The notes under the pieces: generated by a model
Told to the model about the DNA's origin: nothing
The model's input: the letters and a program-made list of their open reading frames with translations, nothing else
Database searches by the model: none
Made by a program: the position numbers and the translations under genes
From: Dehalococcoidia bacterium
Lineage (GTDB): Bacteria; Chloroflexota; Dehalococcoidia; Lucifugimonadales; UBA3495
Direction of reading: 5' to 3'
Assembly (NCBI GenBank): GCA_965220245.1
Contig: CBDCPI010000008.1
Coordinates: 198,412-262,411, forward strand
Length of the DNA: 64,000 bases
Shown here: piece after piece, positions 6,375 to 62,382 of the stretch
Layout: each line of letters opens with the position of its first letter
Numbering within the stretch: position 1 is the stretch's first letter

Positions 6375-7139
6375 CTATTCGGCCCCGGCCCAAGCGCCGC
6401 CGTCGATAATGTAGTTGATGCCGCTCACATAGGAGGCTTCGTCGGAAGATAACCAAGTTATCAGGTTGGCGATTTCCTCGGGCCGCCCCACCCGGCCCAG
6501 CGGGTGCTCTTCGTTCCGTTCCCGAAAAGTCTGGGCGCTAGCCGTGCTACCTCGCATCTGGGGCGTGTCGACACCGCCCGGCGATATGCAATTGACTCGC
6601 ACACCTTGGGTCGAGTATTGCGCCGCCGCCACCTTGGTAAGGTGGATCACCCCGGCTTTACTCACTGCGTAGGGCACCGAGTAAGCGACGCCCCGGACGC
6701 CGGACATGGATGCTATGTTTACAATGGAACCTGCGCCTTGGGACAGCATGGGCGGTATGGCGTACTTGCAGCAGAGGAACAGGCCCTTGATGTTAGTGTC
6801 CATGGTCAGGTCCCAGTCCAGCTCCTCCACCTCAACCAATGGCGGGGTGCGGACCAGGATTGCCGCTCCGTTGACCAGCACGTCCAACTTGCCAAACCGG
6901 GAGACCATCTCCGATACCAGCGCCTCAACTTGATCGGCCTTGGAAATGTCCACCGAAATTGCCGCCGAGTCGCGGTCGGTCCCTTCCATTAGCTGGCAAG
7001 TCTCTTCCGCCCCGGCCCGGTTCCGGTCGGCAACCACCACCCGGGCCCCTTCCTGAAAGAAACGTTGGCAGGTGGCCCGGCCAATGCCGGAAGCACCCCC
7101 GGTTACAATCGCCACTTTATTTTCCAGTCTGCCAGCCAT
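6375..7139 (-). CDS. SDR-family oxidoreductase (3-oxoacyl-ACP reductase-like)
   Basis: 254 aa with TGGASGIGRA cofactor motif, NGAA, and catalytic YAVSKAG. Confidence 0.9.
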   Translation of the reverse strand: MAGRLENKVAIVTGGASGIGRATCQRFFQEGARVVVADRNRAGAEETCQLMEGTDRDSAAISVDISKADQVEALVSEMVSRFGKLDVLVNGAAILVRTPPLVEVEELDWDLTMDTNIKGLFLCCKYAIPPMLSQGAGSIVNIASMSGVRGVAYSVPYAVSKAGVIHLTKVAAAQYSTQGVRVNCISPGGVDTPQMRGSTASAQTFRERNEEHPLGRVGRPEEIANLITWLSSDEASYVSGINYIIDGGAWAGAE

Positions 7140-23360: not shown

Positions 23361-24638
23361 ATGATTGATACTGTTAGACTCAACGTAAAAGCAGGAAATG
23401 GTGGCAATGGCTGCATTAGTTTCTTGCGTGAGAAATACAACCCGAGGGGTGGCCCCAATGGTGGTGATGGGGGAGAGGGTGGCAACGCTTACGTCTGCGG
23501 GGACTCTTCCCTCAACACTTTACTTCATCTGAAGTTTAACAGTACGATTTACGTAGAGCCTGGCGGCCACGGCAAGGGCAAGAACAAACGAGGAGCCGAT
23601 GGTGAGGACGTCACCATTAGGGTCCCGCTAGGCACGCAGGTGTATTTATATGGGCCATCGGGGGAGCGGAGTTTGTTATATGACGTGGTCGACTCCTCTC
23701 CCCACCTGCTGTCCAAGGGCGGGAGAGGTGGCTGGGGCAACGCTCATTACGTGTCTTCGACCAATCAGGAGCCGGTGTTGGCCCAGCGCGGCGGAAAAGG
23801 TGAGCGCTCCGTATTATTCCTAGAGCTCAAGCTGTTGGCGGACGTGGGGTTACTGGCCCGGCCTAACGCTGGTAAGTCCACTTTAATATCTCGCTGTTCG
23901 GCAGCTAAACCCCGAATAGCCGATTACCCCTTTACCACTGTCGAGCCGGTTTTAGGCGTAGTCTCAGCCTACGGCGACAATTTCGTTATGATGGAAGTCC
24001 CAGGGTTGTTGGAGGGCGCCCACCGGGGAGTTGGCTTGGGGCACCAGTTCTTGCGCCACGCCGAGCGTACCCGTATCTATGTCCATCTCATAGATGGTCT
24101 CTCCGAGGACCCGGTTGCTGATTACCACATGCTGACGAATGAATTACAAGAGTTCAACCCGGCATTGGCTGGAAAGCGTCAGATAATCGCCGTCAACAAG
24201 TTGGACGTTACCGAGGTAAAGGAACTGAGGGATGAGATTGCTCTCTCCCTAAGGGAAGCCGTCGGGGACCCTGCGGTGCCAATAACCTTTATCTCGGCGG
24301 CGACCGGGGAGGGGGTGCCTGAGCTGCTGGGGACCATGGTCGAATACTTGGCCGCTGCAAAGACCGAAGAGAGTGAGACCGCGTTAGAGGAAGGGCGTTT
24401 CCGGAAACCTGCGCCGCGGTCCATGCCGGAACGTGTCTACAAATACCAGGGTCTTTATGTAGTCGAGTCGGAGGAACTGGAGCGTTTGGTAGCGCTGGCG
24501 GACCTCAGGGACCAGCGGGTCATTCTTCAGTTATGGCGGGAAATGACCCGCCGTGGTCTGGCCAGGAAGTTGGCTGATCTGGAGATCGAAGCGGGGGACA
24601 CGATTCGCATCGGCCAGTTTGAAGTGGAGTGGTTCTGA
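23361..24638 (+). CDS. obg: GTPase Obg/CgtA
   Basis: 425 aa with Gly-rich Obg fold GNGGNGCISFLREKY..GGPNGGDGGEGG, G1 motif ARPNAGKST, and a C-terminal Obg_CT-like domain. Confidence 0.93.
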   Translation: MIDTVRLNVKAGNGGNGCISFLREKYNPRGGPNGGDGGEGGNAYVCGDSSLNTLLHLKFNSTIYVEPGGHGKGKNKRGADGEDVTIRVPLGTQVYLYGPSGERSLLYDVVDSSPHLLSKGGRGGWGNAHYVSSTNQEPVLAQRGGKGERSVLFLELKLLADVGLLARPNAGKSTLISRCSAAKPRIADYPFTTVEPVLGVVSAYGDNFVMMEVPGLLEGAHRGVGLGHQFLRHAERTRIYVHLIDGLSEDPVADYHMLTNELQEFNPALAGKRQIIAVNKLDVTEVKELRDEIALSLREAVGDPAVPITFISAATGEGVPELLGTMVEYLAAAKTEESETALEEGRFRKPAPRSMPERVYKYQGLYVVESEELERLVALADLRDQRVILQLWREMTRRGLARKLADLEIEAGDTIRIGQFEVEWF

Positions 24639-37104: not shown

Positions 37105-38211
37105 CTAGCTCACCTCTACATCTAGGGGGAACACCATGTTGTTCCCGTACCCGCGCCCGTCCCACTTGTTGGGGAACTCCATCGGCTGGGTTTCTCCCTT
37201 ATTGTTGGTGGCCCGGGACATCAGTGTGTAGCGGCCCGGACCGGAGGGTTGCCACCGGTACTCCCAACGATACCACGAATAGCCGGAATTGGGGTGCAGT
37301 ACGTCGACCGGACTCCAAGACTGTCCCCCATCGGTGCTGATATCGACCTTCACCACCTGGTCCTCGCCGGACCAAGCCGCCCCGGCCAAAGTGTAGCCGC
37401 TGGCGGGGATAACTTCCCCGGGCGCCGGGTTGGTGATGATGGACTTGACCCTCATCTTGGTGATGTAGGTGTAGGGGATTGGCGATCCCGGCTCATTGGC
37501 AGTCATGTACCGTTCGGTCATGTAGAAGCCTTTGAACTCGTGGTCCAAGACGTGAATTCCCACCAGCCACTTAACCGAATTCATGCCGTACCAGCCCGAC
37601 ACCAGCAAGCGCAGCGGAAAGCCGTGCTGTTGCGGCAGAGGCTCCCCGTTCATTTCGTAAGCCAGCAGCGTGTCGGGGTGGGTCGCTTTGGCTATGGGAA
37701 GGCTGCGTTCATAGGTGACCTCGGACGGGTCTCCCACCACTTCGTCGGGACCGTGGTCGGCCCCCTCAAACATCACCTCCACCGCCGAGGACTTCACCCC
37801 GGCTTTGGCCAGCACGTCGGCCAAAGAGACGCCGGCCCACTCGGCGTTGCCCATAATCCCGTGGCCTTTGATTTGCTCCATCGCCGCGTTGATGCGCAGC
37901 GACTTGGTGTAGTATTCCGGGACCGGGCTGTTGCCGCAGCACTCGAAAGTTACCTGGAACCGCTTTTGGGGCAGTTCCTTCAGCTCCGCGTAAGAGAGGC
38001 TCAGCGGCCGCTCCACTTCACCGTCTACCACCAGCCGGTAGCTGTCGGCGTCGATTTGGGGAGAGTCTTTCCAGTGGTTCCGGACGTAGTACAGGTCGTT
38101 GGGAACGATGTTCTCCTGAAGCACTTGGGGAGGCGTGGCAAACGTCCGCAGCCCGACGTTGGTGGGAATAAGCTGGGGCTTGACCTTCGTCACGACTTGT
38201 TGAGTTGCCAT
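37105..38211 (-). CDS. sulfite oxidase-family molybdopterin oxidoreductase (with Mo-co dimerisation domain)
   Basis: 368 aa with the Moco-Cys motif VTFECCGNS, the GFPLRLLVSGWYGMNSVKWL block, and a C-terminal Ig-like domain. I see no signal peptide. Confidence 0.85.
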   Translation of the reverse strand: MATQQVVTKVKPQLIPTNVGLRTFATPPQVLQENIVPNDLYYVRNHWKDSPQIDADSYRLVVDGEVERPLSLSYAELKELPQKRFQVTFECCGNSPVPEYYTKSLRINAAMEQIKGHGIMGNAEWAGVSLADVLAKAGVKSSAVEVMFEGADHGPDEVVGDPSEVTYERSLPIAKATHPDTLLAYEMNGEPLPQQHGFPLRLLVSGWYGMNSVKWLVGIHVLDHEFKGFYMTERYMTANEPGSPIPYTYITKMRVKSIITNPAPGEVIPASGYTLAGAAWSGEDQVVKVDISTDGGQSWSPVDVLHPNSGYSWYRWEYRWQPSGPGRYTLMSRATNNKGETQPMEFPNKWDGRGYGNNMVFPLDVEVS

Positions 38212-38652: not shown

Positions 38653-39846
38653 CTATTCTACAGTAATGTCGTAGCCGACGATGGCGCTGAAATTCTTCCG
38701 CATATTATTATACCGGGGCTCGCGGGACTGTACCCGCCCGGCGGCGTCGGTTGCCCGCGACATCACACTGTACTTGCCGGGCGTTGCAGCCTCCCATACA
38801 TAAGACCAGCGGACCCACATCCACCGGTCAATGGGCTCTTCCAAGCGGGCAGAATGCCAAGTGTCGCCGCCGTCGACGCTAACCTCCACTTGGGTGATGG
38901 TCCCGCCGCCGCTCCAAGCGTAACCACGCACTACGTGTTGGCCCTTTGGCAGCGTGGCGGTGTTGTCGTTGGGCTGGGTGACTATGGACTTGACCCCAAT
39001 AGTGGTGATCAACTCTTTGTTGGGGTCGTCGGGCGAGTCCCCGTAGTAGTAGAAGTTGTAGTGGTACCAGCAGTCGGGCTCGTGGTCTAAAACCTCCAGC
39101 TTCCACAGCCACTTCACCGACCAGTTTCCGGACCATCCGGGGACCAGCAAGCGTACCGGAGCGCCGTGCAAGTGCTCCAAACGCTTTCCGTTTTGGGCTA
39201 CCGCCAGGAGGGTGTCGGGATGGAGCGCCTTCTCTATGGGCAAGCCCTTGTCGTAGAAGAAGGGATCGGTGCCGGGTTCCGCCGTGGCGGGGACGCCCTT
39301 GTCCCACCCTTCGGCCCGGACGTGGGTGGCCCTACCGGTAAGGCCGACGTCGTTCAATACCGCTGCCAAGGGAACGCCCGTCCATTCGCTGGCGCTGAGA
39401 ATCATGCACTCTTGGGTCCGGGAAGGTTTCGATCCTTCCCCTTTGAAATACTCAAAGTAGGTGGCGTCGCTGCCGGAACATTCCATGACGGTCCGGACCG
39501 TGCGGCCGGGATAACGCCGCAACTGGTCGTAGGTAAGCTCCAGCGGCTGCTTCACCTCACCGGTTACGGTGAGGGCCCACCTCTCCGGGGGGACCACATC
39601 CGGCACCGCGAAGTGTTGGACCACATAATGGAGTTCAGTGGGGGTCATGAGACCCTCCAACTCGGTTACCGGGGCGCGGACCCTCGTGGTCCGCCCGTCT
39701 TCGTCCAACAGAGTAACGGCCTGCAACTCCTTGCTGGGCCAACCGTACCAACTGCCTCCTCCGGAACGGCCGGGGTTCCAAGGATCGCCTTTCGGGCCCT
39801 CCATGCGCAGAAAGTCGGGGGTGGCGCTTTCTTGCTGCGTGGCCAT
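38653..39846 (-). CDS. sulfite oxidase-family molybdopterin oxidoreductase, paralog
   Basis: 397 aa with the Moco-Cys motif VMECSGSD, the GAPVRLLVPGWSGNWSVKWL block, and a C-terminal dimerisation domain. I see no signal peptide. Confidence 0.85.
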   Translation of the reverse strand: MATQQESATPDFLRMEGPKGDPWNPGRSGGGSWYGWPSKELQAVTLLDEDGRTTRVRAPVTELEGLMTPTELHYVVQHFAVPDVVPPERWALTVTGEVKQPLELTYDQLRRYPGRTVRTVMECSGSDATYFEYFKGEGSKPSRTQECMILSASEWTGVPLAAVLNDVGLTGRATHVRAEGWDKGVPATAEPGTDPFFYDKGLPIEKALHPDTLLAVAQNGKRLEHLHGAPVRLLVPGWSGNWSVKWLWKLEVLDHEPDCWYHYNFYYYGDSPDDPNKELITTIGVKSIVTQPNDNTATLPKGQHVVRGYAWSGGGTITQVEVSVDGGDTWHSARLEEPIDRWMWVRWSYVWEAATPGKYSVMSRATDAAGRVQSREPRYNNMRKNFSAIVGYDITVE

Positions 39847-39931: not shown

Positions 39932-41512
39932 CTAGTCCGCAGCGTATTTTTCACCCAGCGCGGTCTCCCATCGCAGGTAGTTCATCATCTCGGCGGGATT
40001 TCGGTCGACGCCCAAAATCACCACGTCGGTTGGTGGCGCCATAACGCCGGTGAGGCCGGTTTCCACTTCCAGCCCGGTCTGGGACCAAGCCGCCATGCCT
40101 CCCTCGAGCACCACAACGTGCTGGTAACCAAGGTCATTGAGGCTGGCGCCGGCTAGGACCGAAACCTCGCCGTTCGAGCAGGTAACGCCGATGGGCTCGG
40201 ACTTCGATGGGGCTAGGCCTTCAACCTGGAACTCCAACCATCCTCTAGGCGTCCAGTGGGAACCGGGCAGGTGTCTTCGAGCGAAGTCTTGGCTGCTGTC
40301 AACGAACAAGACAGTGGCAGGCTTGCTGGCTCGAAACTCGCTTGGGGAAAGCACTTGGACTTTGCCCAAGGCCTCTGCTTGGTTTTCCGCAGTTTCGCTC
40401 ACTATGCCTTGGTCAAGCCGGAGCCCCGCCCCGGCCCAAGCGCCGGTCCCGCCTTCCAATACGTATACTTCTTGGTGGCCCAACTGCCGGTACCAAGAGC
40501 CGGCGAAGGTGGCCCGGGCGATGCCGTCGCAGCAGAAGACCACGGTGCTGTTATGCACCACCGCCACATCATCATAGCGCTGCACCGCTTGGCCTCCGGG
40601 AAACCAGCGGAATCCCGGTATATGTCCCGACGCGAACTCCTCTTGAGTCCGCACATCGACCAAGTAGATGCTTTTCCGGTCTCGTTCCTCAAGCAACTGC
40701 CGCAGGGCGGAAACGTCCAAGTAACGCACGCCGTCTTCGGCGGCAAGTTTGGCGGCGTAAGCCTCGGCGGCGGTCAAGCCTTCGGCCGAGGGCTCGGGGA
40801 GATTCAACCGGCCGGCGCCGCGCTCGACTGGGTATCCGGCCAGCACCCATCCTGAGGTGCCGTTTTTCAACCCCAAGGCGTTGGTAAACCCCATCCGCTG
40901 CAACACCCGGGTGCCGATGATGCTCCGGGTGCGCCCGGCGCAGTTGATCACCACGGTAGTATCCGGGTCGAGGTCTTTAACCACGTCGGTAATACGCAGG
41001 GCCAATTCCCCACCGGGCATACTCCGGCCGCCGGGGATGCAAAACCTTTGGTACTCTTCCGGGGTCCGCGTGTCCAGGATGACCACCTTATCACCCCGGT
41101 CCAAGCGGCTCTGTAACTCGGGCGCGTCGATTTCCGGAACATGGTGGACCACTTCCATCTTCTCGCCGAAGTCCTTGCTGGGCACGTTGGTGCCCCACTC
41201 GGTGGGGTAATCCAAGGTGGTCCAGCGGTTGATGCCACCGTCCAGCACCGACACTTGACTATAGCCTAGGCGCTCCAAGGTATCGGCGGCGGCAGCGGCA
41301 CGCCGCCCGTCATCGTCGCAAACGACCACTTTCGCGCCCTTGAAAGGCACAGCGGGTCCTATCTGGAACTCCAGACGACGCCGAGGTATCAAACTTGACC
41401 CCGGAATGTGGGAACTGTTGTACTCCCCGGCTTCCCGAACGTCGATTAACGCGAATTCGGAATCTCCGTCAAATAAACTTTTCAGGACCTCCGCGGATGT
41501 CCTCTCGGCCAT
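39932..41512 (-). CDS. four-domain rhodanese-like sulfurtransferase
   Basis: 526 aa with four rhodanese repeats. Each has a Cys loop: VVCDDDGRRA, INCAGRTRS, FCCDGIARA, VTCSNGEVS. Confidence 0.85.
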   Translation of the reverse strand: MAERTSAEVLKSLFDGDSEFALIDVREAGEYNSSHIPGSSLIPRRRLEFQIGPAVPFKGAKVVVCDDDGRRAAAAADTLERLGYSQVSVLDGGINRWTTLDYPTEWGTNVPSKDFGEKMEVVHHVPEIDAPELQSRLDRGDKVVILDTRTPEEYQRFCIPGGRSMPGGELALRITDVVKDLDPDTTVVINCAGRTRSIIGTRVLQRMGFTNALGLKNGTSGWVLAGYPVERGAGRLNLPEPSAEGLTAAEAYAAKLAAEDGVRYLDVSALRQLLEERDRKSIYLVDVRTQEEFASGHIPGFRWFPGGQAVQRYDDVAVVHNSTVVFCCDGIARATFAGSWYRQLGHQEVYVLEGGTGAWAGAGLRLDQGIVSETAENQAEALGKVQVLSPSEFRASKPATVLFVDSSQDFARRHLPGSHWTPRGWLEFQVEGLAPSKSEPIGVTCSNGEVSVLAGASLNDLGYQHVVVLEGGMAAWSQTGLEVETGLTGVMAPPTDVVILGVDRNPAEMMNYLRWETALGEKYAAD

Positions 41513-44487: not shown

Positions 44488-45945
44488 TATTACAACGACG
44501 GTTCAAGGAGGGACGTGTGGGGAGGCACGAAGGGCGGCTCGACGCTTGGCATGGGAGTGTCTGGCCCGCTCGTTGCATTCTTGCGTCTCCTCCAGCCACC
44601 GCAGCAGTTCAGCCGGCCCGAACCGTTCCCGGGGCAGCATCTCCCGCACCACCCGGTAGACCTGCGGTCTCGTGATCCGGGGCATCTTTTCCCCCCCAAG
44701 CCTGTTGCAGGCTCAGGAGAAACGCTCCGCCCAGCAGGCACAGGGCGACGTGATGATGCCATCCCGCCCAGGTGCGGGTCTCGTACTCGTCCAGCCCCAC
44801 GTTGCTCTTTTCCGTCTCGAACTCCGTTTCTATGCGCCACCGGGAGCCACCCACGTATGCCAGGGTCTCCAGGGGAGTATCCTCCGGATCGTTGGACAGG
44901 TAGTAGCGGGGCTCGCTGCCGTCCAGGTTCCGGCGGTAAATGGCCCAGTGGATTTCGCCAGGCTTCCGCCTGCTGGTTGGACGCACCCTCTGAGCGCTGA
45001 ACAGGTAGCTGCGGGGACCCTGGCTTCCCTCGGCCACCGTAATCTCACGCCAGGCCTCCTCCGGCAATTCATCGCTGCGCTGCTCCATGGTCCGGCGCTG
45101 ACCGTCTCGCAACTTGGGTTTGCGGGGACGCCCGAATCCCTGATGCTCCGGCCTGGTCCAGGCTGGCTCCAGCGGCCAGACCGTGGTGCCGCCGGGAACG
45201 TCCAGCACGTAGCGCATCCCCAGCGCCGCCAGTCCCTCACGGAAGGACGGCGACATCCCGAAGGCGTCGTCCCCCGCAACCCATCCGGCCCTCAGATGTC
45301 CCCGCTCCAAGGCCCGCTCCACCATCTTCAGCGCCAATTGGGTCTTCGACTGGTAGCCCTGCCTCTCCTCCGGAACCCCCGCCGCCTCACACCGGTCTTG
45401 GTCCGAGGTCCAGCTCTCCGGCAGATAAAGCCGTTTGTCCACCAGGGCCCGTCCCAGCGGGCTGACGTAGGCGAGGAACATTCCGGCCTGGCAGCTGGCC
45501 ACCTTGCCCAGCCTCCCGCAATACTGACGGGCCACTCCCACGGACTTCCTGCCCTGCTTCGGGAAGTCGCTGCCGTCCAGCACCCACACCGCATCCGGAT
45601 GTCCCAGCCGGGGTCCCAAGTACTCTTGAAGGCGTCCTATGACTGTGTCGTCATCCCAGGGGGATTCAGCGAGAAACCGCTGCATCACCCTGGCTGACGC
45701 CGGAACCGTCTCCGACAGATTCTCGGCGTTGCGCCGCTCCCCGGACTGTACCAGGAGAGCCTGGAGGTAATGGCGGCTGTGGTCCCGCGCTTCCCTGCGG
45801 CCAAACAGCGGAGCGAAGTAAGCGTGAAAATCCTGAAAGGTCCCGTACACCTGCTCGAAAACCGCAGCATCCACTTCCCTGCCTCACTTGCCCAAGCCTT
45901 CCCCAACTACCCCGTCATCCTAGCATCCCAACCGTCGTTGTAATA
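44488..45945 (-). mobile_element. IS701-family insertion sequence with 4-bp TTAG target-site duplication
   Basis: It has perfect 16-bp inverted repeats TATTACAACGACGGTT (44488-44503 and 45930-45945). TTAG flanks it on both sides (44484-44487 and 45946-45949). Confidence 0.85.
44503..45874 (-). CDS. IS701-family DDE transposase, frame broken at a C7/G7 homopolymer
   Basis: The main ORF 44609-45874 has the block RHYLQALLVQSGERRNAENLSE. The conserved C-terminal end KMPRITRPQVYRVVREML continues in another frame (44503-44685). The frame switch coincides with the C7 run at 44701-44707. Confidence 0.8.
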
Positions 45946-48875: not shown

Positions 48876-49685
48876 TTACCCCAGCAATTCATCCACCGTA
48901 AGGCGTATTTCAGGCAAGGCTTGGATGTTTAGCGTGTCGCCGCGCTGGTACCGCGTGACTTCCCGGTACCCTTCGGGCGTGGGGCCGCGGTAGACTTCGA
49001 CTGCTTCTCCGTTAATATCGATAAGCCACGTTTCGGGGATGCCGTTGTTGGCGTAATACGGCAACTTCACTCTACGGTCCGATCGTATCGTGGTGTCTGA
49101 TACCTCTACTATCAGCAAAACGTCGGCCGGCTCGGGATGCCGGGAGCGGTAGGAGCCTTCCCGTCTCCGGAGCAACATTAAGTCCGGCTCCGGCTCGCCG
49201 CTATCCCTCAGACGGACCGGGCCTTGCACCCGAACTCTTGCCATCGTTGAGAACCTGGTGACGAACAACTCGGTGATGGTGTCTACATTCTCTTGGTGAG
49301 GACTTCCGATTGGAGGCATTAGCACGATCTCCCCGTCTATCAACTCCACCCTATCGTCTTCCGTCAGGATGCCTGCTTCCCCCATAGCGTGGTATTCGTC
49401 AACCGTGTACTTGTGAATACAAGCATCCACCTCCTCCGACAGGTCCTCCATTTCATTCAAAAAGCGGGTTATACCACCCTTGAGCGCAGGGTGGGAGCGG
49501 TTCCTTACCAGAGGAGCCCGGTCCCACACCACGCCGTCCAGCAATTCCTCCCCGTGTCCCCAAGGCAGGATTCCAACCTCTGCCATCTTGAAATACTGGT
49601 CCACGTTGAACTTGTAGCGCATGATTTCCGTTTGTTTGGTTTCGTCGTCCATGTCCCGCCTCCCTCCGGGATGTGTAGCCCTCAC
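48876..49685 (-). CDS. Uma2-family (DUF820) endonuclease
   Basis: 269 aa with YTVDEYHAMGEAGIL..DDRVELIDGEIV, PEPDLMLL, LLIVEVSDTT and GIPETWLIDI. An extra partial N-terminal repeat of the first motif is present. Confidence 0.75.
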   Translation of the reverse strand: MRATHPGGRRDMDDETKQTEIMRYKFNVDQYFKMAEVGILPWGHGEELLDGVVWDRAPLVRNRSHPALKGGITRFLNEMEDLSEEVDACIHKYTVDEYHAMGEAGILTEDDRVELIDGEIVLMPPIGSPHQENVDTITELFVTRFSTMARVRVQGPVRLRDSGEPEPDLMLLRRREGSYRSRHPEPADVLLIVEVSDTTIRSDRRVKLPYYANNGIPETWLIDINGEAVEVYRGPTPEGYREVTRYQRGDTLNIQALPEIRLTVDELLG

Positions 49686-49689
49686 TGGT

Positions 49690-51594
<1,905 letters not shown>

Positions 51595-51608: not shown

Positions 51609-51803
51609 TTATTGCCTTCCGATTTCCGGGACCGATAGGTTGCGGCAGATTTTACGGGCCAGCACGTTTTTAATCTCGGTATGCCGTGGTATGGCTTCAA
51701 CTTCTCCAGTGGCGGGGTTTGTCCACAAAGCATGAGAGCGTCCTTGCCGCAGAAGTTCACAGACGTTGCGCCGGAGATGACGAAGCAAAGAAGTCAGCTT
51801 CAA
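51609..51803 (-). CDS. hicA: HicA-family toxin
   Basis: 64 aa with LRQGRSHALWTNPATGEVEAIPRHTEIKNVLARKICRNL. Confidence 0.65.
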   Translation of the reverse strand: MKLTSLLRHLRRNVCELLRQGRSHALWTNPATGEVEAIPRHTEIKNVLARKICRNLSVPEIGRQ

Positions 51804-51815
51804 AAGAAATCAGCT

Positions 51816-52064
51816 TCATACGATATAGTAGATTCCGTCGGGGAGGGCGTCCGGGAGGACTATGGTTTCGGGGTTGATGCCGTAGGGGACGCCCCGCATC
51901 CCGCTTTCGCGGCGGTGGTGAAGGATGAGGGCTATAGCTTCGGCCAAGTTGGTGCGGCATTCGTCCTTGGTCTTACCCTGGCCATTGGCGCCGGGGATTT
52001 CAAGGCAGTAGGCTATGTACCAGTCGTCGTCCTGTTCAAAAATCGCAGTGAATTCATTGTGCAT
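51816..52064 (-). CDS. hicB: HicB-family (UPF0150) antitoxin
   Basis: 82 aa with FTAIFEQDDDWYIAYCLEIPGANGQGKTKDECRTNLAEAI. Confidence 0.65.
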   Translation of the reverse strand: MHNEFTAIFEQDDDWYIAYCLEIPGANGQGKTKDECRTNLAEAIALILHHRRESGMRGVPYGINPETIVLPDALPDGIYYIV

Positions 52065-52308
52065 TGACTCGTCCTCCCTGCGTTTGCCAGTCTACAGGTC
52101 GGCCAACTCCCTTGGATTACGTCGTATTACGTCCGTTGCTGTCGTGTCTGCCCTATTCTAAACCCGCCATCAGATGGCAACAAGAAACGCAGAGTTCCTC
52201 TGGTTGACCCTCAAAAGGGCGTATCTTACAATCTGCGTGAGCTTGGGCCGGCCCGGTCCAATCGCTCAAAAATCGTTGCAAAACCGTCAAAGCTGGCCAG
52301 GAGGACGT

Positions 52309-53139
52309 ATGACGATTTCAGAGGGGTTTGCCCACCCGGAATACTTGGTGGACGCCGAGTGGGTTGACGCCCATAAAGACGATACCAACGTGGTCATTAT
52401 TGATTGCGACGTGGACGCCGGGTACAACCGGGGCCACATACCCGGCGCGGCCTTGGTGCCGGACAATTTCGAGAAGAACCCGGACACCAATCGAGTCCAC
52501 CTTATGAACCCCGAGCAGTTTACCGCCATGTGCCAAGGGTTGGGGATTGGCGACGACTCCCTGGTGATCACCTATGACAACGGCCAAAGCCTGACGGCGG
52601 CCCGGCTGTGGTGGGCCCTTAATACCTACGGCCACTCCGAGGTCAAGGTGCTGGACGGCGGCTGGCGGCGCTGGGTAAGCGAGGGCCGGCCCGTAAGCTT
52701 CGGCCGGCCCAAGCCCCCTTCCGGGGCCAGCTTCACTGCTAAGTCCGATGAGTCGATGTTGGTCAAGGTGGACGAGCTCAAGGCCGCTTGTGATATGTCC
52801 GATGCGGTCATCTGGGACGTGCGCAGCGACGGAGAATGGGACGGCAGCCAAAGCCGGAACAACAAGCGGCTGGGCCACATCCCCGGCGCAATCCACTTGG
52901 AGTGGTTCAACGTCATGGACCGGGAGACGCACTGCTTCAAGTCGCCCGGCGAAATCCGCCGCGTACTAGCTGAGGCGGGGATTACCCCGGAAAAGAAAGT
53001 CTACACTTATTGACAGGGGGGCATCCGTGCGGCGCACGGTGTATTCGTACTGAAGCTTCTCGGCTATGGCGAGACCAAGAACTATGATGCCTCTATGGGG
53101 GAGTGGGCCAACCGGGACGACACTCCTATGACAGTCTAA
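52309..53139 (+). CDS. two-domain rhodanese (thiosulfate/3-mercaptopyruvate sulfurtransferase type) with in-frame TGA at the catalytic Cys position (candidate selenocysteine)
   Basis: ATG 52309 is preceded by GGAGGA. The ORF stops at TGA 53011-53013 within ...KKVYTY-TGA-QGGIRAAHGVFVLKLLGYGETKNYDASMGEWANRDDTPMTV-TAA (53137-53139). The same frame continues with the conserved active-site loop and C-terminus. Confidence 0.6.
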
Positions 53140-53335: not shown

Positions 53336-53626
53336 ATGCCCGCTTGGGTTTTTGGCGCGATTCAAAGCATTAGCGACCCCGCCGGATTTGCCGCGTATCA
53401 AGGCGCGGCCGGCCCTACCATCGCCAAACACGGCGGGAAAATCATCGCTGCCGGAAACAAGATAGAGGTTGCCGACGGCAACTGGATGCCGGTTGGAGTC
53501 GTCGTGCTCGAGTTCGAGAATCTGGAGAAGGCCAAGAGTTGGTATAACTCGTCGGACTACAACCCGTTGGTGTCCCGGCGGACCGCTTCTAGCGACGCTA
53601 GCATGGTCTTCGTTGACGGGGGCTAA
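53336..53626 (+). CDS. DUF1330 protein
   Basis: 96 aa with the pattern Y..AAGPTIAKHGGKIIA.G........G.W.P.GVVVLEFENLEKAKSWYNSSDY. Confidence 0.7.
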   Translation: MPAWVFGAIQSISDPAGFAAYQGAAGPTIAKHGGKIIAAGNKIEVADGNWMPVGVVVLEFENLEKAKSWYNSSDYNPLVSRRTASSDASMVFVDGG

Positions 53627-53632
53627 GGCAAC

Positions 53633-54769
53633 TTATTCCCGCAGCAACTGCCTGGCTATCGTTTGTCGCTGGATCTCCGAGGCGCCTTCATAGATGGTGA
53701 GGGCCCGTACCTCCCGGTATAGCCGCTCAATCCGGCTCCCCTTCTCCAGACCGGCGCCGCCGTGAATCTGGAGGGACTCGTTCACGATGCGGGACGCCGC
53801 CTCGGTGGCGAAGAGTTTGGCAAAGGAAGCCTCTTTAATCACCATCTCTTGCCCCGAGTCCTTCAGCCAAGCGGCCCGGTGCGACAGAAGGCGGGCCGCA
53901 TCCAGAGACACGGCCATATCCGCCAGCTTGAACTGGGTAGCCTGGAAATCGCTAAGTTGCTGCCCAAACATGGTCCGGCCCTTGGCGTAGGCCAAGGCCG
54001 CTTCGTAGGCCGCTTGCCCCATACCCACTGCGGCGGCGGCTACGGTGGTGCGGAAGGTGTCCAGGGTCCCTAGGGCCAGCCGCAAACCCTGTCCCCGTTC
54101 CCCAATCAAGCTCCCTTGGGTCACGCGGCAGTCGTCGAAGACCGGTTCCCCGATGGGGTGAGCCGCCATCAAGTCCATGCGCCGGGAGTCGTCGAAGCCC
54201 GGCGTCCCCTGCTCGACGATGAACGCCGATAGGCTGCGGCTGCCAGCCTCGGGGTCGGTCTTAGCGAAGACGGTATAGGTCTGCGCGTCACCCGCTTGGG
54301 AGATGAACTTCTTGCGGCCGTTCAGCACCCAGTCGTCGCCGTCCGGGACCGCCTGAGTGGTCATGCTCAGCACGTCGGAGCCGCCGTGGGGCTCGGTGAG
54401 GGCAAAGGCGGCGATGGCCTCGCCGTTGGCGATGGCGGGCAGGTAGCGCTGTTTCTGCTCGGAAGTGCCGCCCAAGGTAATGGGGTAGCTGCCCAAGCCT
54501 TGCATGATGAAGTTGGTATCTGCTTGGGCCGACACCCGGGCCAGTTCCTCCCGCACGATACACAGGTCCATCACCCGGACGCCGTAGCCGCCGTACTCCT
54601 GCGGCACGGTGTAACGCAACAAGCCCGACTCGGCCAGCACAGCCATCAACCCTTGATGCACCCGGCTGGACTCGTCGGCTTCCTCGGCGATAGGCGCGAT
54701 GCGTTCCTCGGCCAACCGGCGGACGTGGGTTTTTAAGGCCTGCTGTTCGGTCGAAAGGCTAAAGTCCAT
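53633..54769 (-). CDS. acyl-CoA dehydrogenase
   Basis: 378 aa with ALTEPHGGSDV, QIHGGAGLEKGSRIERLYREVRALTIYEGASEIQ. Confidence 0.9.
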   Translation of the reverse strand: MDFSLSTEQQALKTHVRRLAEERIAPIAEEADESSRVHQGLMAVLAESGLLRYTVPQEYGGYGVRVMDLCIVREELARVSAQADTNFIMQGLGSYPITLGGTSEQKQRYLPAIANGEAIAAFALTEPHGGSDVLSMTTQAVPDGDDWVLNGRKKFISQAGDAQTYTVFAKTDPEAGSRSLSAFIVEQGTPGFDDSRRMDLMAAHPIGEPVFDDCRVTQGSLIGERGQGLRLALGTLDTFRTTVAAAAVGMGQAAYEAALAYAKGRTMFGQQLSDFQATQFKLADMAVSLDAARLLSHRAAWLKDSGQEMVIKEASFAKLFATEAASRIVNESLQIHGGAGLEKGSRIERLYREVRALTIYEGASEIQRQTIARQLLRE

Positions 54770-55331
54770 GAGTCTCCTTTAGATTGGGAGCCTGTGACCA
54801 AATCTTGCCCCTTCTCCTGAGGGAGAAGGTCGGGATGAGGGTGGAATGCCTGGGCACATATAAGTTAGGCGTCACCGCCAAACGGCCCTAACCCTCACCC
54901 TCTCCCCGCTGACAGGGGTAGGTAAAAGATGAAACAAGGATAGGAACTTGGAAAGCGCACGGGTTTCTGGCATCTTTTTGGTGTCAAACAGAAAGGTAGC
55001 CAGAGGTTCGCGATGCGTCTCCCATCTGAATGTTACCAGATGCAACAGACGGTAGAACACTACCTGCCGCACCTCACCCGGTCTCAGGTCAGGGGACTGG
55101 CGCCCTGGGTCTATGGGACCATACTGGCCGAGAGCGGCTGCCAGAACGCCGTGGTCACGGCCCTTTTGGCGGTGGGCCGTTGGAACAACCTGCGCCAGCA
55201 CCTCCGGGAGTGGCTGTACAACGGGCGCGACCGCGCCAGCCCCTGCCGGGCGCAACTGGAGGTGAGGCGGTGCTTTGTTCCGCTGTTGAGATGGCTGCTG
55301 GCATGGTGGCAGCCGGACCGGCTGGCGCTGG

Positions 55332-55396
55332 CGATAGACCCAACCGATAGACCCAACCGATAGACCCAACCGATAGACCCAACCGATAGACCCAAC
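55332..55396. repeat. tandem repeat (CGATAGACCCAAC)x5
   Basis: Five perfect 13-nt units sit inside the IS4 transposase frame. The 52 extra nt shift the frame by +1. Confidence 0.95.
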
Positions 55397-56078
55397 GATG
55401 AAGGGGGCCCAGATAAACTCTATCGTCATAAGCGTGGTCCACCGCAGTTGCGCTATTCCGGTGGCCTGGCACATCCTGCCGGCCAACAAACCCGGGCAGT
55501 GGGTAGCGTCGGCGGTGAGTCTGCTGAAGTTGCTGTCCGAAGCGGTCCCGCCGGACATGACGGTGCTGGTAATGACTGACCGCGGTCTGAGGAGTCCGCG
55601 GCTGTGGGAGCAGATACGCGCTCTGTGGGGTGGCATCCTTACATGCGTCAATCGGTCAACACCGTGTTCTGCCCTGAAGGAGGGACCCGCCTGCCAGCGC
55701 GAGCGCTGGTACCGGGACCCGGGCACGCATATGTTGGGTCCGGGACGGCTTTCCGGGACCGCAGCAAGCGCCGCCGTGAGACGATGATTGTGGTCTGGGA
55801 CATCCGCCAGGACGAGCCGTGGGTGGTGATGGCCAGCGTCCCGCCGGATGCCGCAGGAGCGTGCTGGTATGGGCTTCGCTTCTGGATAGAACCGGGCTTC
55901 AAGGCGCTGAAGAGCGTTGGGTGGCAATGGCAGAAGACTCGAAGGACTGACCCGGAACGGGTCTCCGGGCATTGGCTGGTATTGTCCGTGGCGACGCTGT
56001 GGGCGCTGGCATACGGGACCCGAGCCGAAGACGCCAACGGCCTGGGCATACCCCCCGGCCGCCTCCGGAAGCCTCCTA

Positions 56079-57039
56079 AGTGCCTATCCTAAAAACAGAA
56101 TTCGAGCTAAACTAGTGGTATGACGAAAGCGAAGGAACCCAAGCCGCCACGACCGAAGCGCGCCGGCCCAGCGGCGCCGGTCAACCCCACCACCGGCTCC
56201 TTTCAGGTATCCGATGAACTGTGGGAAGTGCTGGCCCCGTTGCTTCCCCAGCGGGTGAACACTCATCCCCGGGGCGGAGGCCGTCCCCGGGTCCCGGACC
56301 GGACCTGCGCCAACGGCATATTCTACGTGCTGCGCACCGGCTGCCAATGGAAAGCCCTGGATGCCACGGGCATTTGCTCCGGATCCACCGCCCATCTGCG
56401 CTTCCAGGAGTGGGCCGCCGCCGGGGTGTTCCTGGAGCTGTGGCGGGCGGGCCTGCAAGAGTACGATGAATTGAAGGGTCTGGACTGGAGTTGGCTGAGC
56501 ATGGACGGGGCGATAACCAAATCCCCCCTGGGCGGGGGGAAAAACCGGCCCCAACCCCACGGACCGGGGCAAGAGCGGGGTCAAACGCAGTCTGTTGACC
56601 GAAGCTGAGGGCATCCCGGTGGGGCTGGCGGTGGACGGAGCCAACCGCCACGACATGAAACTGGTGCGGGCTACGCTGGACAGTTTCCCGGTGCCGCGCC
56701 CGGCGCCCACTCCGGAGCGTCCCCAAGGTCTGTGCCTGGACAAGGGCTATGACTATGAGGAGGTGCGCCGAACCCTGGAGGAATTCGGCTTCACCGCCCA
56801 CATCCGCAGCCGGGGCGAGGAGGCCCAGGCCATCAAAGCCCAGGCCATCAAAAAGGAGGCTGGCTTCAAAGCCCGGCGCTGGGTGGTGGAACGCACCCAC
56901 AGTTGGATGAACCGCTTCCGGCGCATTCTGGTGCGCTGGGACAAGTTTCCCAGAAACTACATCGCCTTTCTTCATTTCGCCTGTGCCCTTATTGCTTTCA
57001 GGGCTGCCGGATTATTAGGATAGGCTCTTAGTCGCTGCC
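56079..57039 (+). mobile_element. IS5-family (IS427/IS1031-like) insertion sequence with TA target duplication
   Basis: The inverted repeats are AGTGCCTATCCTAA and TTAGGATAGGCTCT. TA lies at 56077-56078 and 57040-57041. Removing the IS and one TA restores the host transposase frame (...KPP-S-RCRPIT...). Confidence 0.85.
56120..57023 (+). CDS. IS5-family transposase in two overlapping frames (orfA 56120-56608, orfB ~56535-57023)
   Basis: orfA contains NGIFYVLRTGCQWKALD. orfB contains GGKTGPNPTDRGKSGVKRSLLTEAEGIPVGLAVDGANRHD...LDKGYD...RWVVERTHSWMNRFRRI. The frames meet at the G6A5 run 56534-56544, and orfB is in the +1 frame. Confidence 0.8.

Positions 57040-58209: not shown

Positions 58210-62382
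<4,173 letters not shown>

Follow-up and report, generated by a model that had tools for sequence, protein, structure and literature searches.

A two-domain rhodanese with an in-frame UGA at its catalytic cysteine position in SAR202-type Dehalococcoidia: a predicted selenoprotein with two alternative downstream hairpins

Rhodanese-related sulfurtransferases of the COG2897 group were introduced as a new family of selenoproteins in 2005, on three Sargasso Sea sequences with a predicted selenocysteine insertion sequence (SECIS) element (PMC1088965); the same family was recovered in Global Ocean Sampling (GOS) data in 2008 as cd01449 (PMC2398784), and a review of 2026 lists it as 'form 4', with the motif UxxG, in which U stands for selenocysteine (Sec) (PMC13188914). 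This kind of protein has been known, from prediction, since 2005, and the reviews yielded no experimental characterisation of the Sec-rhodanese family; an initial inspection of the locus described here, made from the letters alone (the sequence-only reading), had likewise stated that Sec-containing rhodanese-like proteins were predicted from metagenomes but uncharacterised, and this holds for what the three accounts say of the family (PMC1088965; PMC2398784; PMC13188914). The gene considered here lies in a stretch of 64,000 nucleotides (nt) from a Dehalococcoidia bacterium (GenBank assembly GCA_965220245.1, contig CBDCPI010000008.1, positions 198,412 to 262,411; hereafter the window, with coordinates counted from its first letter). 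It holds an otherwise complete two-domain rhodanese reading frame with one in-frame UGA at the position of the catalytic cysteine (Cys), closely followed by a hairpin, and very probably encodes a selenoprotein, that is, a rhodanese whose catalytic nucleophile would be Sec and whose UGA would be recoded by way of the hairpin.

How does this locus compare with the systems already described? The likeness to form 4, as the Sargasso Sea and GOS accounts present it in their passages on the family, comprises the two-domain COG2897 architecture, Sec at the catalytic site, a U-Q-G-G sequence that agrees with UxxG, a bacterial SECIS element directly after the UGA, marine origin and the existence of many Cys homologs; that the present protein belongs to one orthologous group with the published representatives (AACY01016424, MCY3690685.1) is suggested by COG and motif. 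Those same passages mention neither an occurrence throughout the SAR202 clade nor two hairpin designs. Other Sec-rhodaneses (COG0607 forms 1 and 2, the LYCAU-type NF041203 and the rhodanese/DsbD fusion TsoB) share a rhodanese fold with Sec but differ from the present protein in architecture or in Sec motif (CxU, UxxS, UxxxxU), and membership in NF041203 was considered and rejected at 44.5 bits against a cut-off of 115. The Cys-type rhodaneses of Thermus thermophilus (1UAR), Mycobacterium tuberculosis (CysA/SseA; 3AAX/3HWI/3HZU), Azotobacter vinelandii (RhdA; 1E0C) and Escherichia coli (SseA; 1URH) align over the full length (E = 2.7e-43 to 2.5e-31) and have in common with it an inactive N-domain, a catalytic C-domain and a six-residue loop after the nucleophile, whereas the predicted nucleophile here is a UGA-encoded Sec and the loop reads QGGIR, in contrast to RIAER/RIGER in 1UAR and 3HWI/3AAX.

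The gene and its parts are as follows.

52204-52232, forward strand: promoter-like TTGACC-17-TACAAT, some 77 nt before the ATG
52299-52304, forward strand: Shine-Dalgarno-like AGGAGG, 4 nt before the ATG, recognised from the sequence
52309-53139, forward strand: complete coding sequence, 276 codons including the UGA (predicted Sec) at codon 235, plus a TAA stop
52354-52680, forward strand: N-terminal non-catalytic rhodanese domain, residues 16-124, a Pfam PF00581 stretch
52756-53130, forward strand: C-terminal catalytic rhodanese domain, about residues 150-274, spanning the UGA; limits approximate
53011-53013, forward strand: in-frame UGA, predicted U235, at the catalytic Cys position according to structures, Cys homologs and TGA at 80 of 80 species loci
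53011-53031, forward strand: active-site loop codons U-Q-G-G-I-R-A, the same loop as in Cys homologs
53021-53042, forward strand: extended hairpin, with three extra pairs below the core and U 53024 bulged
53025-53039, forward strand: core SECIS-like hairpin (H1), stem 53025-53030/53034-53039, loop GGC at 53031-53033
53137-53139, forward strand: true stop TAA, from the reading of the frame

From the ATG at 52309-52311, a start supported by ortholog N-termini that align from residues 1-4, the frame runs to ...EKKVYTY and meets the TGA at 53011-53013; past it, the same frame reads QGGIRAAHGVFVLKLLGYGETKNYDASMGEWANRDDTPMTV over 41 codons and ends at the TAA, the peptides of this C-terminal tail including NYDASMGEWANR. 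The read-through protein contains two PF00581 rhodanese stretches (Pfam, E = 6e-35) and aligns end to end with 1UAR (E = 2.7e-43), 3HWI/3AAX, 1E0C and 1URH, reaching residue 273-274 in the 1UAR and 3HWI/3AAX alignments, and in all of these the TGA column coincides with the catalytic Cys. The sequence-only reading had proposed just such a 276-codon two-domain rhodanese, interrupted only by the TGA and with the TGA in the place of the catalytic Cys; the frame, the Pfam matches and the structure alignments bear out the first point, and the columns of the solved rhodaneses the second. In the N-domain, the equivalent of the catalytic residue is occupied by Asp90 (ITYDNGQS), which is nearly invariant in the homolog alignment, and an Asp at this position is common to other enzymes of the two-domain architecture. 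Because the catalytic domain spans the UGA, a protein stopped there would be missing both the active-site loop and the last part of the fold. The product is best described as a predicted TST/SseA-type rhodanese (COG2897) with two domains and a cytoplasmic location, though not an SseA equivalog: its best NCBIfam match, to the model for 3-mercaptopyruvate sulfurtransferase (NF008557), gives 132 bits against a cut-off of 250, so that the substrate is not transferable by homology, and the match to the NCBIfam selenite/tellurite-reduction rhodanese ExtH is also below threshold (70 bits). A promoter role for the site at 52204-52232 is only a possibility, and one such site was found where 0.8 would be expected by chance.

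The case for decoding of the UGA begins with its conservation. A protein search with the read-through sequence gave 120 best matches (68-88% identity) that are all 223-237 residues long, cover about 77-85% of the query and are all called as ending at the TGA column. At the DNA level, 80 species-representative genomes were compared, all of them Dehalococcoidia/SAR202/Chloroflexota metagenome-assembled genomes (MAGs), which together with the window make 81 sequences. TGA stands at the catalytic column in 80/80 of these species genomes, TGC or TGT in none, and the TGA is followed in every one by an open frame of 40-45 codons with the pattern QGGIR[AS]A...NYD[AG]SMGEWAN..DTP. The tail measures 41 amino acids in 75 of the 81 sequences and 40-45 in the rest, and it is closed by TAG (48 sequences), TAA (21) or TGA (12). 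Pairwise divergence at codon positions 1/2/3 amounts to 0.20/0.11/0.43 beyond the hairpin and to 0.22/0.17/0.47 upstream of the UGA, and protein identity among orthologs is 75% downstream and 69% upstream; since the divergence pattern matches that of the upstream coding part, the tail is evidently translated and under purifying selection as protein. This was the ortholog comparison that the sequence-only reading had proposed for its selenoprotein candidate, with a decayed downstream frame named as the mark of a pseudogene, and the outcome favours the candidate: TGA throughout, and a frame that is open and coding-like in 81 of 81. The predicted Sec is thus kept in every SAR202-type genome examined, without reversion to Cys, a point that is new but minor.

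More distant relatives, collected by an exhaustive search of the representatives of 50%-identity clusters, extend the same picture. Many clusters at 36-49% identity end at ...[TSAV][YH], exactly the TGA column, while full-length clusters (274-292 residues) read C-Q-[GAS]-G-[IV]-R-A at the loop. Nine full-length homologs have Cys at the UGA column within the motif C-Q/H-x-G-[IV]-R, and P0143, P0156, P0158, P0136 and P0137 are Cys homologs with the loop C-Q-[GAS]-G-[IV]-R-A. Two of the distant 'truncated' clusters, P0125 (49% identity) and P0129 (44%), were checked at the DNA level, and both have the TGA, the conserved tail and the CCGTGC-GGC-GCACGG hairpin. With these more distant homologs, the gene appears to form a Sec/Cys pair. 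Directly seen at the locus and in its relatives are one open reading frame (ORF) intact but for the UGA, a UGA at the catalytic column, a conserved frame and a translated tail.

The second line of evidence is the hairpin, which lies within the codons for the conserved peptide. The sequence-only reading had described a stem CCGUGC (53025-53030) and GCACGG (53034-53039) closed by GGC, extensible to 53021-53042 with a bulged U and placed 7 nt after the UGA; stem, loop and extension (with U 53024 bulged) are all there, whereas the 7-nt distance holds for the extended stem only, the core starting 11 nt after the UGA. A hairpin just 3' of the UGA with a G in its apical loop fits the general model of bacterial SECIS elements, including the geometry of fdhF. 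Like the E. coli fdhF-type element, H1 is a hairpin inside the coding sequence, just 3' of the UGA, with its core from 11 nt and an apical-loop G; unlike it, H1 has an apical loop of 3 nt (GGC) and no conserved bulged U in the upper stem, and SelB binding is putative.

Among the orthologs, all six pairs of H1 are kept in each of the 57 sequences of the AAHG type and the 3 of the SANG type (60/60 of its type), the latter three bearing a compensatory change from G-C to U-A, and an unguided RNAalifold run on 29 sequences, two distant homologs among them, recovers exactly H1; of the three pairs of the lower-stem extension, between none and three are kept in relatives. The remaining pattern is different. 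In 19 AANS sequences and 1 AANG sequence (including loci L002 and L004), three pairs of H1 are broken, and these same 20 sequences have a perfect 8-base-pair hairpin (H2) lying 8 nt further downstream (20-41 nt after the TGA) with 8/8 pairs, its 3' arm falling on invariant TTC GTC codons; RNAalifold on 18 of the 20 recovers H2 plus two further pairs. The replacement of H1 by H2 goes together with two substitutions beside the active-site loop, His to Asn and Gly to Ser. Both apical loops open with an invariant G, which lies about 17 nt downstream of the UGA in H1 and about 25 nt downstream of it in H2. Two alternative predicted hairpin designs, coupled to amino-acid changes, are present in one orthologous group, which is again a new but minor point.

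Codon choice across the region points the same way. In a codon alignment of the 81 sequences, synonymous sites close around the UGA are frozen, contrary to the codon usage of the family. Codon resampling that keeps the peptide and this usage produces a perfect H1 stem in 1.7% of cases. Ala+6 is GCG in 76/77 and Ala+7 in 81/81 (GCG usage 23%), Arg+5 is CGT in 62/81 (usage 7.5%) and His+8 is CAC in 57/57; in codons further downstream, third positions vary freely. On the other side of the UGA, Tyr-1 is TAT in 81/81, TAT accounting for 20% of the family's Tyr codons. Constraint at the RNA level acts on the hairpin. As to the Tyr codon itself (53008-53010), which is TAT though the family prefers TAC by about 4:1, a distant homolog in locus L443 has TAC. 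The TAT before the UGA may be a recoding context effect or part of the RNA structure.

How would the UGA be decoded? We infer Sec as the inserted residue, SelB binding of the hairpin, and the chemistry and physiological substrate of Sec235. A ribosome would pause at the UGA (53011-53013), and the hairpin, with its core at 53025-53039 and its apical-loop G about 17 nt after the UGA, would recruit SelB-GTP-Sec-tRNASec so that the UGA is translated, recruitment of this SelB type being how bacterial SECIS elements work. The recoding signal would be written within the I-R-A-A-H-G codons that follow the active-site loop. In the finished enzyme, Sec235 would carry sulfane sulfur, possibly selenium, in an Se-S or Se-Se intermediate that stands in for the Cys persulfide. 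The benefits expected of Sec are a lower pKa, a higher nucleophilicity and easier recovery from over-oxidation.

Several results weigh against a SelB-type recoding signal and a Sec-decoding host, and they concern the energetics of the hairpin, its evolutionary signal and the insertion machinery. Compared with shuffled sequences, the fold of the 50-mer that follows the UGA has z = -0.8, with 39/200 shuffles folding as well, and compared with synonymous re-codings of the same peptide it has z = -0.2; in the free 50-mer, H1 reaches an ensemble probability of about 12% and is not the minimum-energy fold. Covariation is thin, consisting of one compensatory pair, with support coming mostly from invariance, and part of that invariance could stem from selection on the R-A-A-H-G peptide. 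An Rfam scan of the whole window gave no family match. In the window, ARAGORN found no tRNA genes, and tblastn and phmmer searches with E. coli queries found no homologs of SelA, SelB or SelD. Nor were selA, selB, selD or tRNA-Sec found, with the same E. coli queries and programs plus ARAGORN, in about 3.6 Mb of relatives' DNA that makes up small fractions of each genome; besides the window, the sampling sets were 80 rhodanese loci with 3-kb and 10-kb flanks, 80 loci of a four-domain rhodanese and 29 obg loci. Because the folding energy is ordinary, the significance of the hairpin rests on comparison and not on energy; with the 12 nt that directly follow the UGA made inaccessible, as a ribosome paused on the UGA is assumed to make them, H1 is the fold of minimum energy (P about 0.7). 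As the sampled DNA represents small genome fractions, the missing sel genes are uninformative rather than negative. One candidate from these searches, a 100-nt tRNA-Ser(tga) called by ARAGORN at 6379-6478 (reverse strand) of locus L336, with its anticodon at 39, was set aside as probably spurious after Rfam came back empty.

Among the alternatives, the one that survives best leaves the decoding untouched and changes the job: the protein could be a selenium carrier (for example, one that delivers reduced selenium to SelD), a detoxifying protein or a redox sensor. It gains from the sub-threshold NCBIfam matches (132 bits against 250, and 70 bits for ExtH), from neighbours (acs, hicAB, DUF1330 and acyl-CoA dehydrogenase genes) that form no informative operon, and from the capacity of rhodaneses to carry selenium in vitro; it loses from the lack of any physical link between the gene and sel genes in the DNA sampled, and from a separate Cys-type rhodanese near two sulfite-oxidase-like genes in the window, which makes sulfur metabolism the obvious theme. 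Such another job is rather unlikely. A bolder proposal builds on the selenoprotein reading itself. The protein would be an obligate, clade-wide SAR202 selenoenzyme whose hairpin and protein co-evolve, and would act as a selenium-dependent persulfide/perselenide carrier tied to sulfite or organosulfur metabolism, not as an ordinary thiosulfate sulfurtransferase; we consider this quite unlikely, and in the context of the 64-kb window nothing ties the Sec-rhodanese to the sulfur genes. Were it true, it would concern a lineage that is abundant in the dark ocean and associated with sponges.

Could the UGA be read without Sec? If the UGA were read at a useful rate independently of SECIS or Sec, whether through Cys-tRNASec or through a near-cognate tRNA for Cys, Trp or Arg, the site would hold Cys or another residue. 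Two of the results given above speak for this: no Sec machinery was directly observed in the DNA sampled from carrier genomes, and the hairpin is energetically ordinary. Yet the enzyme needs a nucleophile in this column, and read-through by near-cognate tRNAs is of low efficiency, with Trp or Arg as the residues mostly inserted. A change of one base to TGC or TGT would supply Cys, yet such a codon is seen in 0/80 species, and a SelB-type signal is consistent with both the frozen synonymous sites and the existence of two hairpin designs. Moreover, carrier genomes are on record as Sec users. In the database BSepDB, a genome is searched for selenoproteins only if it has two or more of SelA, SelB and SelD, and two Dehalococcoidia bacteria, UBA1141 (49 genes) and isolate 10f4566d-... 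(46 genes), are among its ten most selenoprotein-rich bacteria (PMC13326102); loci L004 and L002 come from these two genomes, both of which carry the TGA ortholog. In addition, SelA, SelB and SelD COGs were reported in all five SAR202 sponge bins of Slaby et al. 2017 (PMC5649159, Table S4). Read-through of this sort is accordingly judged very unlikely.

That the gene is a pseudogene or a truncation, with the stop at 53013 yielding a 234-residue protein devoid of its active site and the downstream frame a relic, is what public gene calls and NCBI annotation would suggest, in that they give 'sulfurtransferase' products of 233-234 residues. A relic would decay, however, whereas the frame here is open in 81/81 sequences, with the same end, a coding pattern of substitution and 75% protein identity; lineages as distant as 36-49% identity share the very same point of 'truncation', and the product stopping there would be without its catalytic loop. 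Truncation is highly improbable on this evidence.

TGA is otherwise an ordinary stop. It ends atpG (884-886) and obg (24636-24638), the two genes that the sequence-only reading had rightly cited for this point; it ends 15/46 long ORFs in the window, among them GcvPA, whose TGA falls just where its NCBIfam model stops; and 12 orthologs of the Sec-rhodanese themselves end in TGA, 41 codons after the in-frame TGA, from which it follows that UGA decoding depends on context. The genetic code is not reassigned. A sequencing or assembly error, or a reassigned code with TGA as a sense codon, has nothing in its favour beyond the bare in-frame TGA and is scarcely credible in view of these stops, of the TGA in 80 other species and of a separate JGI metagenome contig (L280) that shows no difference across the TGA and the tail.

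What does a gene of this kind add, given that it opens no new kind of system? Its value is for the specialist, and lies in the predicted Sec being strictly kept, in preference to Cys, throughout a deep clade, in the two hairpin designs and in the question of what advantage Sec confers in a sulfurtransferase, for which no test was found. It also contributes to the view that SAR202/Dehalococcoidia are selenium-dependent (BSepDB, PMC13326102), and points to a systematic mis-annotation, in that the NCBI, JGI and ENA pipelines still truncate what is very probably a real bacterial selenoprotein gene. Public entries illustrate the latter: MYC29924.1, MCI0860081.1 and HIN06229.1, together with JGI and ENA calls, are presented as complete 233-234-residue 'sulfurtransferase' or 'thiosulfate/3-mercaptopyruvate sulfurtransferase' proteins, cut at the Sec codon. 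A Sec/Cys-pair scan of 1.5 Mb for more selenoprotein genes was swamped by out-of-frame shadows of conserved genes.

The surroundings of the gene in the window comprise the following features.

37105-38211 and 38653-39846, reverse strand: sulfite-oxidase-like molybdoenzymes
39932-41512, reverse strand: four-domain rhodanese of 526 residues, all domains Cys-type, about 12 kb upstream of the Sec-rhodanese
44609-45874, reverse strand: intact DDE_5 transposase
48876-49685: Uma2-family endonuclease
49690-51594, divergent to the rhodanese gene: acetyl-CoA synthetase (acs)
51609-52064, reverse strand: HicA toxin/HicB-like antitoxin pair, between acs and the predicted selenoprotein gene
53336-53626: DUF1330 protein
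53633-54769: acyl-CoA dehydrogenase
54872-56100: transposase remnants
58210-62382 region, forward strand: protein of 1390 residues that combines two BcrAD/BadFG ATPase modules with DUF2229, of the CoA-enzyme activase type

The Sec-rhodanese gene stands alone; acs is its only frequent neighbour in relatives, and synteny gave no functional clue. The four-domain rhodanese adjoins the sulfite-oxidase-like genes, which makes sulfur metabolism a theme of this genome; its orthologs are found in SAR202 and also in Entotheonella, Rokubacteria and Methylomirabilia MAGs. It was considered as a second Sec candidate and rejected, in-frame stops being present in 0/80 of its orthologs. Within the region of transposase remnants (54872-56100), the translation of an ORF repeats a SIGWVYRLGLSVG-like peptide, a hint of short tandem repeats in the DNA near 55100-55400, and the BcrAD/BadFG protein is followed on the forward strand by a 514-residue ORF with no Pfam match. 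Finally, the closest relatives of the obg gene of the window show 64-69% protein identity, with 24 SAR202-type genomes matched, and they include the sponge-derived Chloroflexota MAGs RHO3_bin_2, RHO1_bin_4 and SB0662_bin_28; the source of the DNA may be a sponge-associated SAR202 lineage without a close representative in the genome collection.

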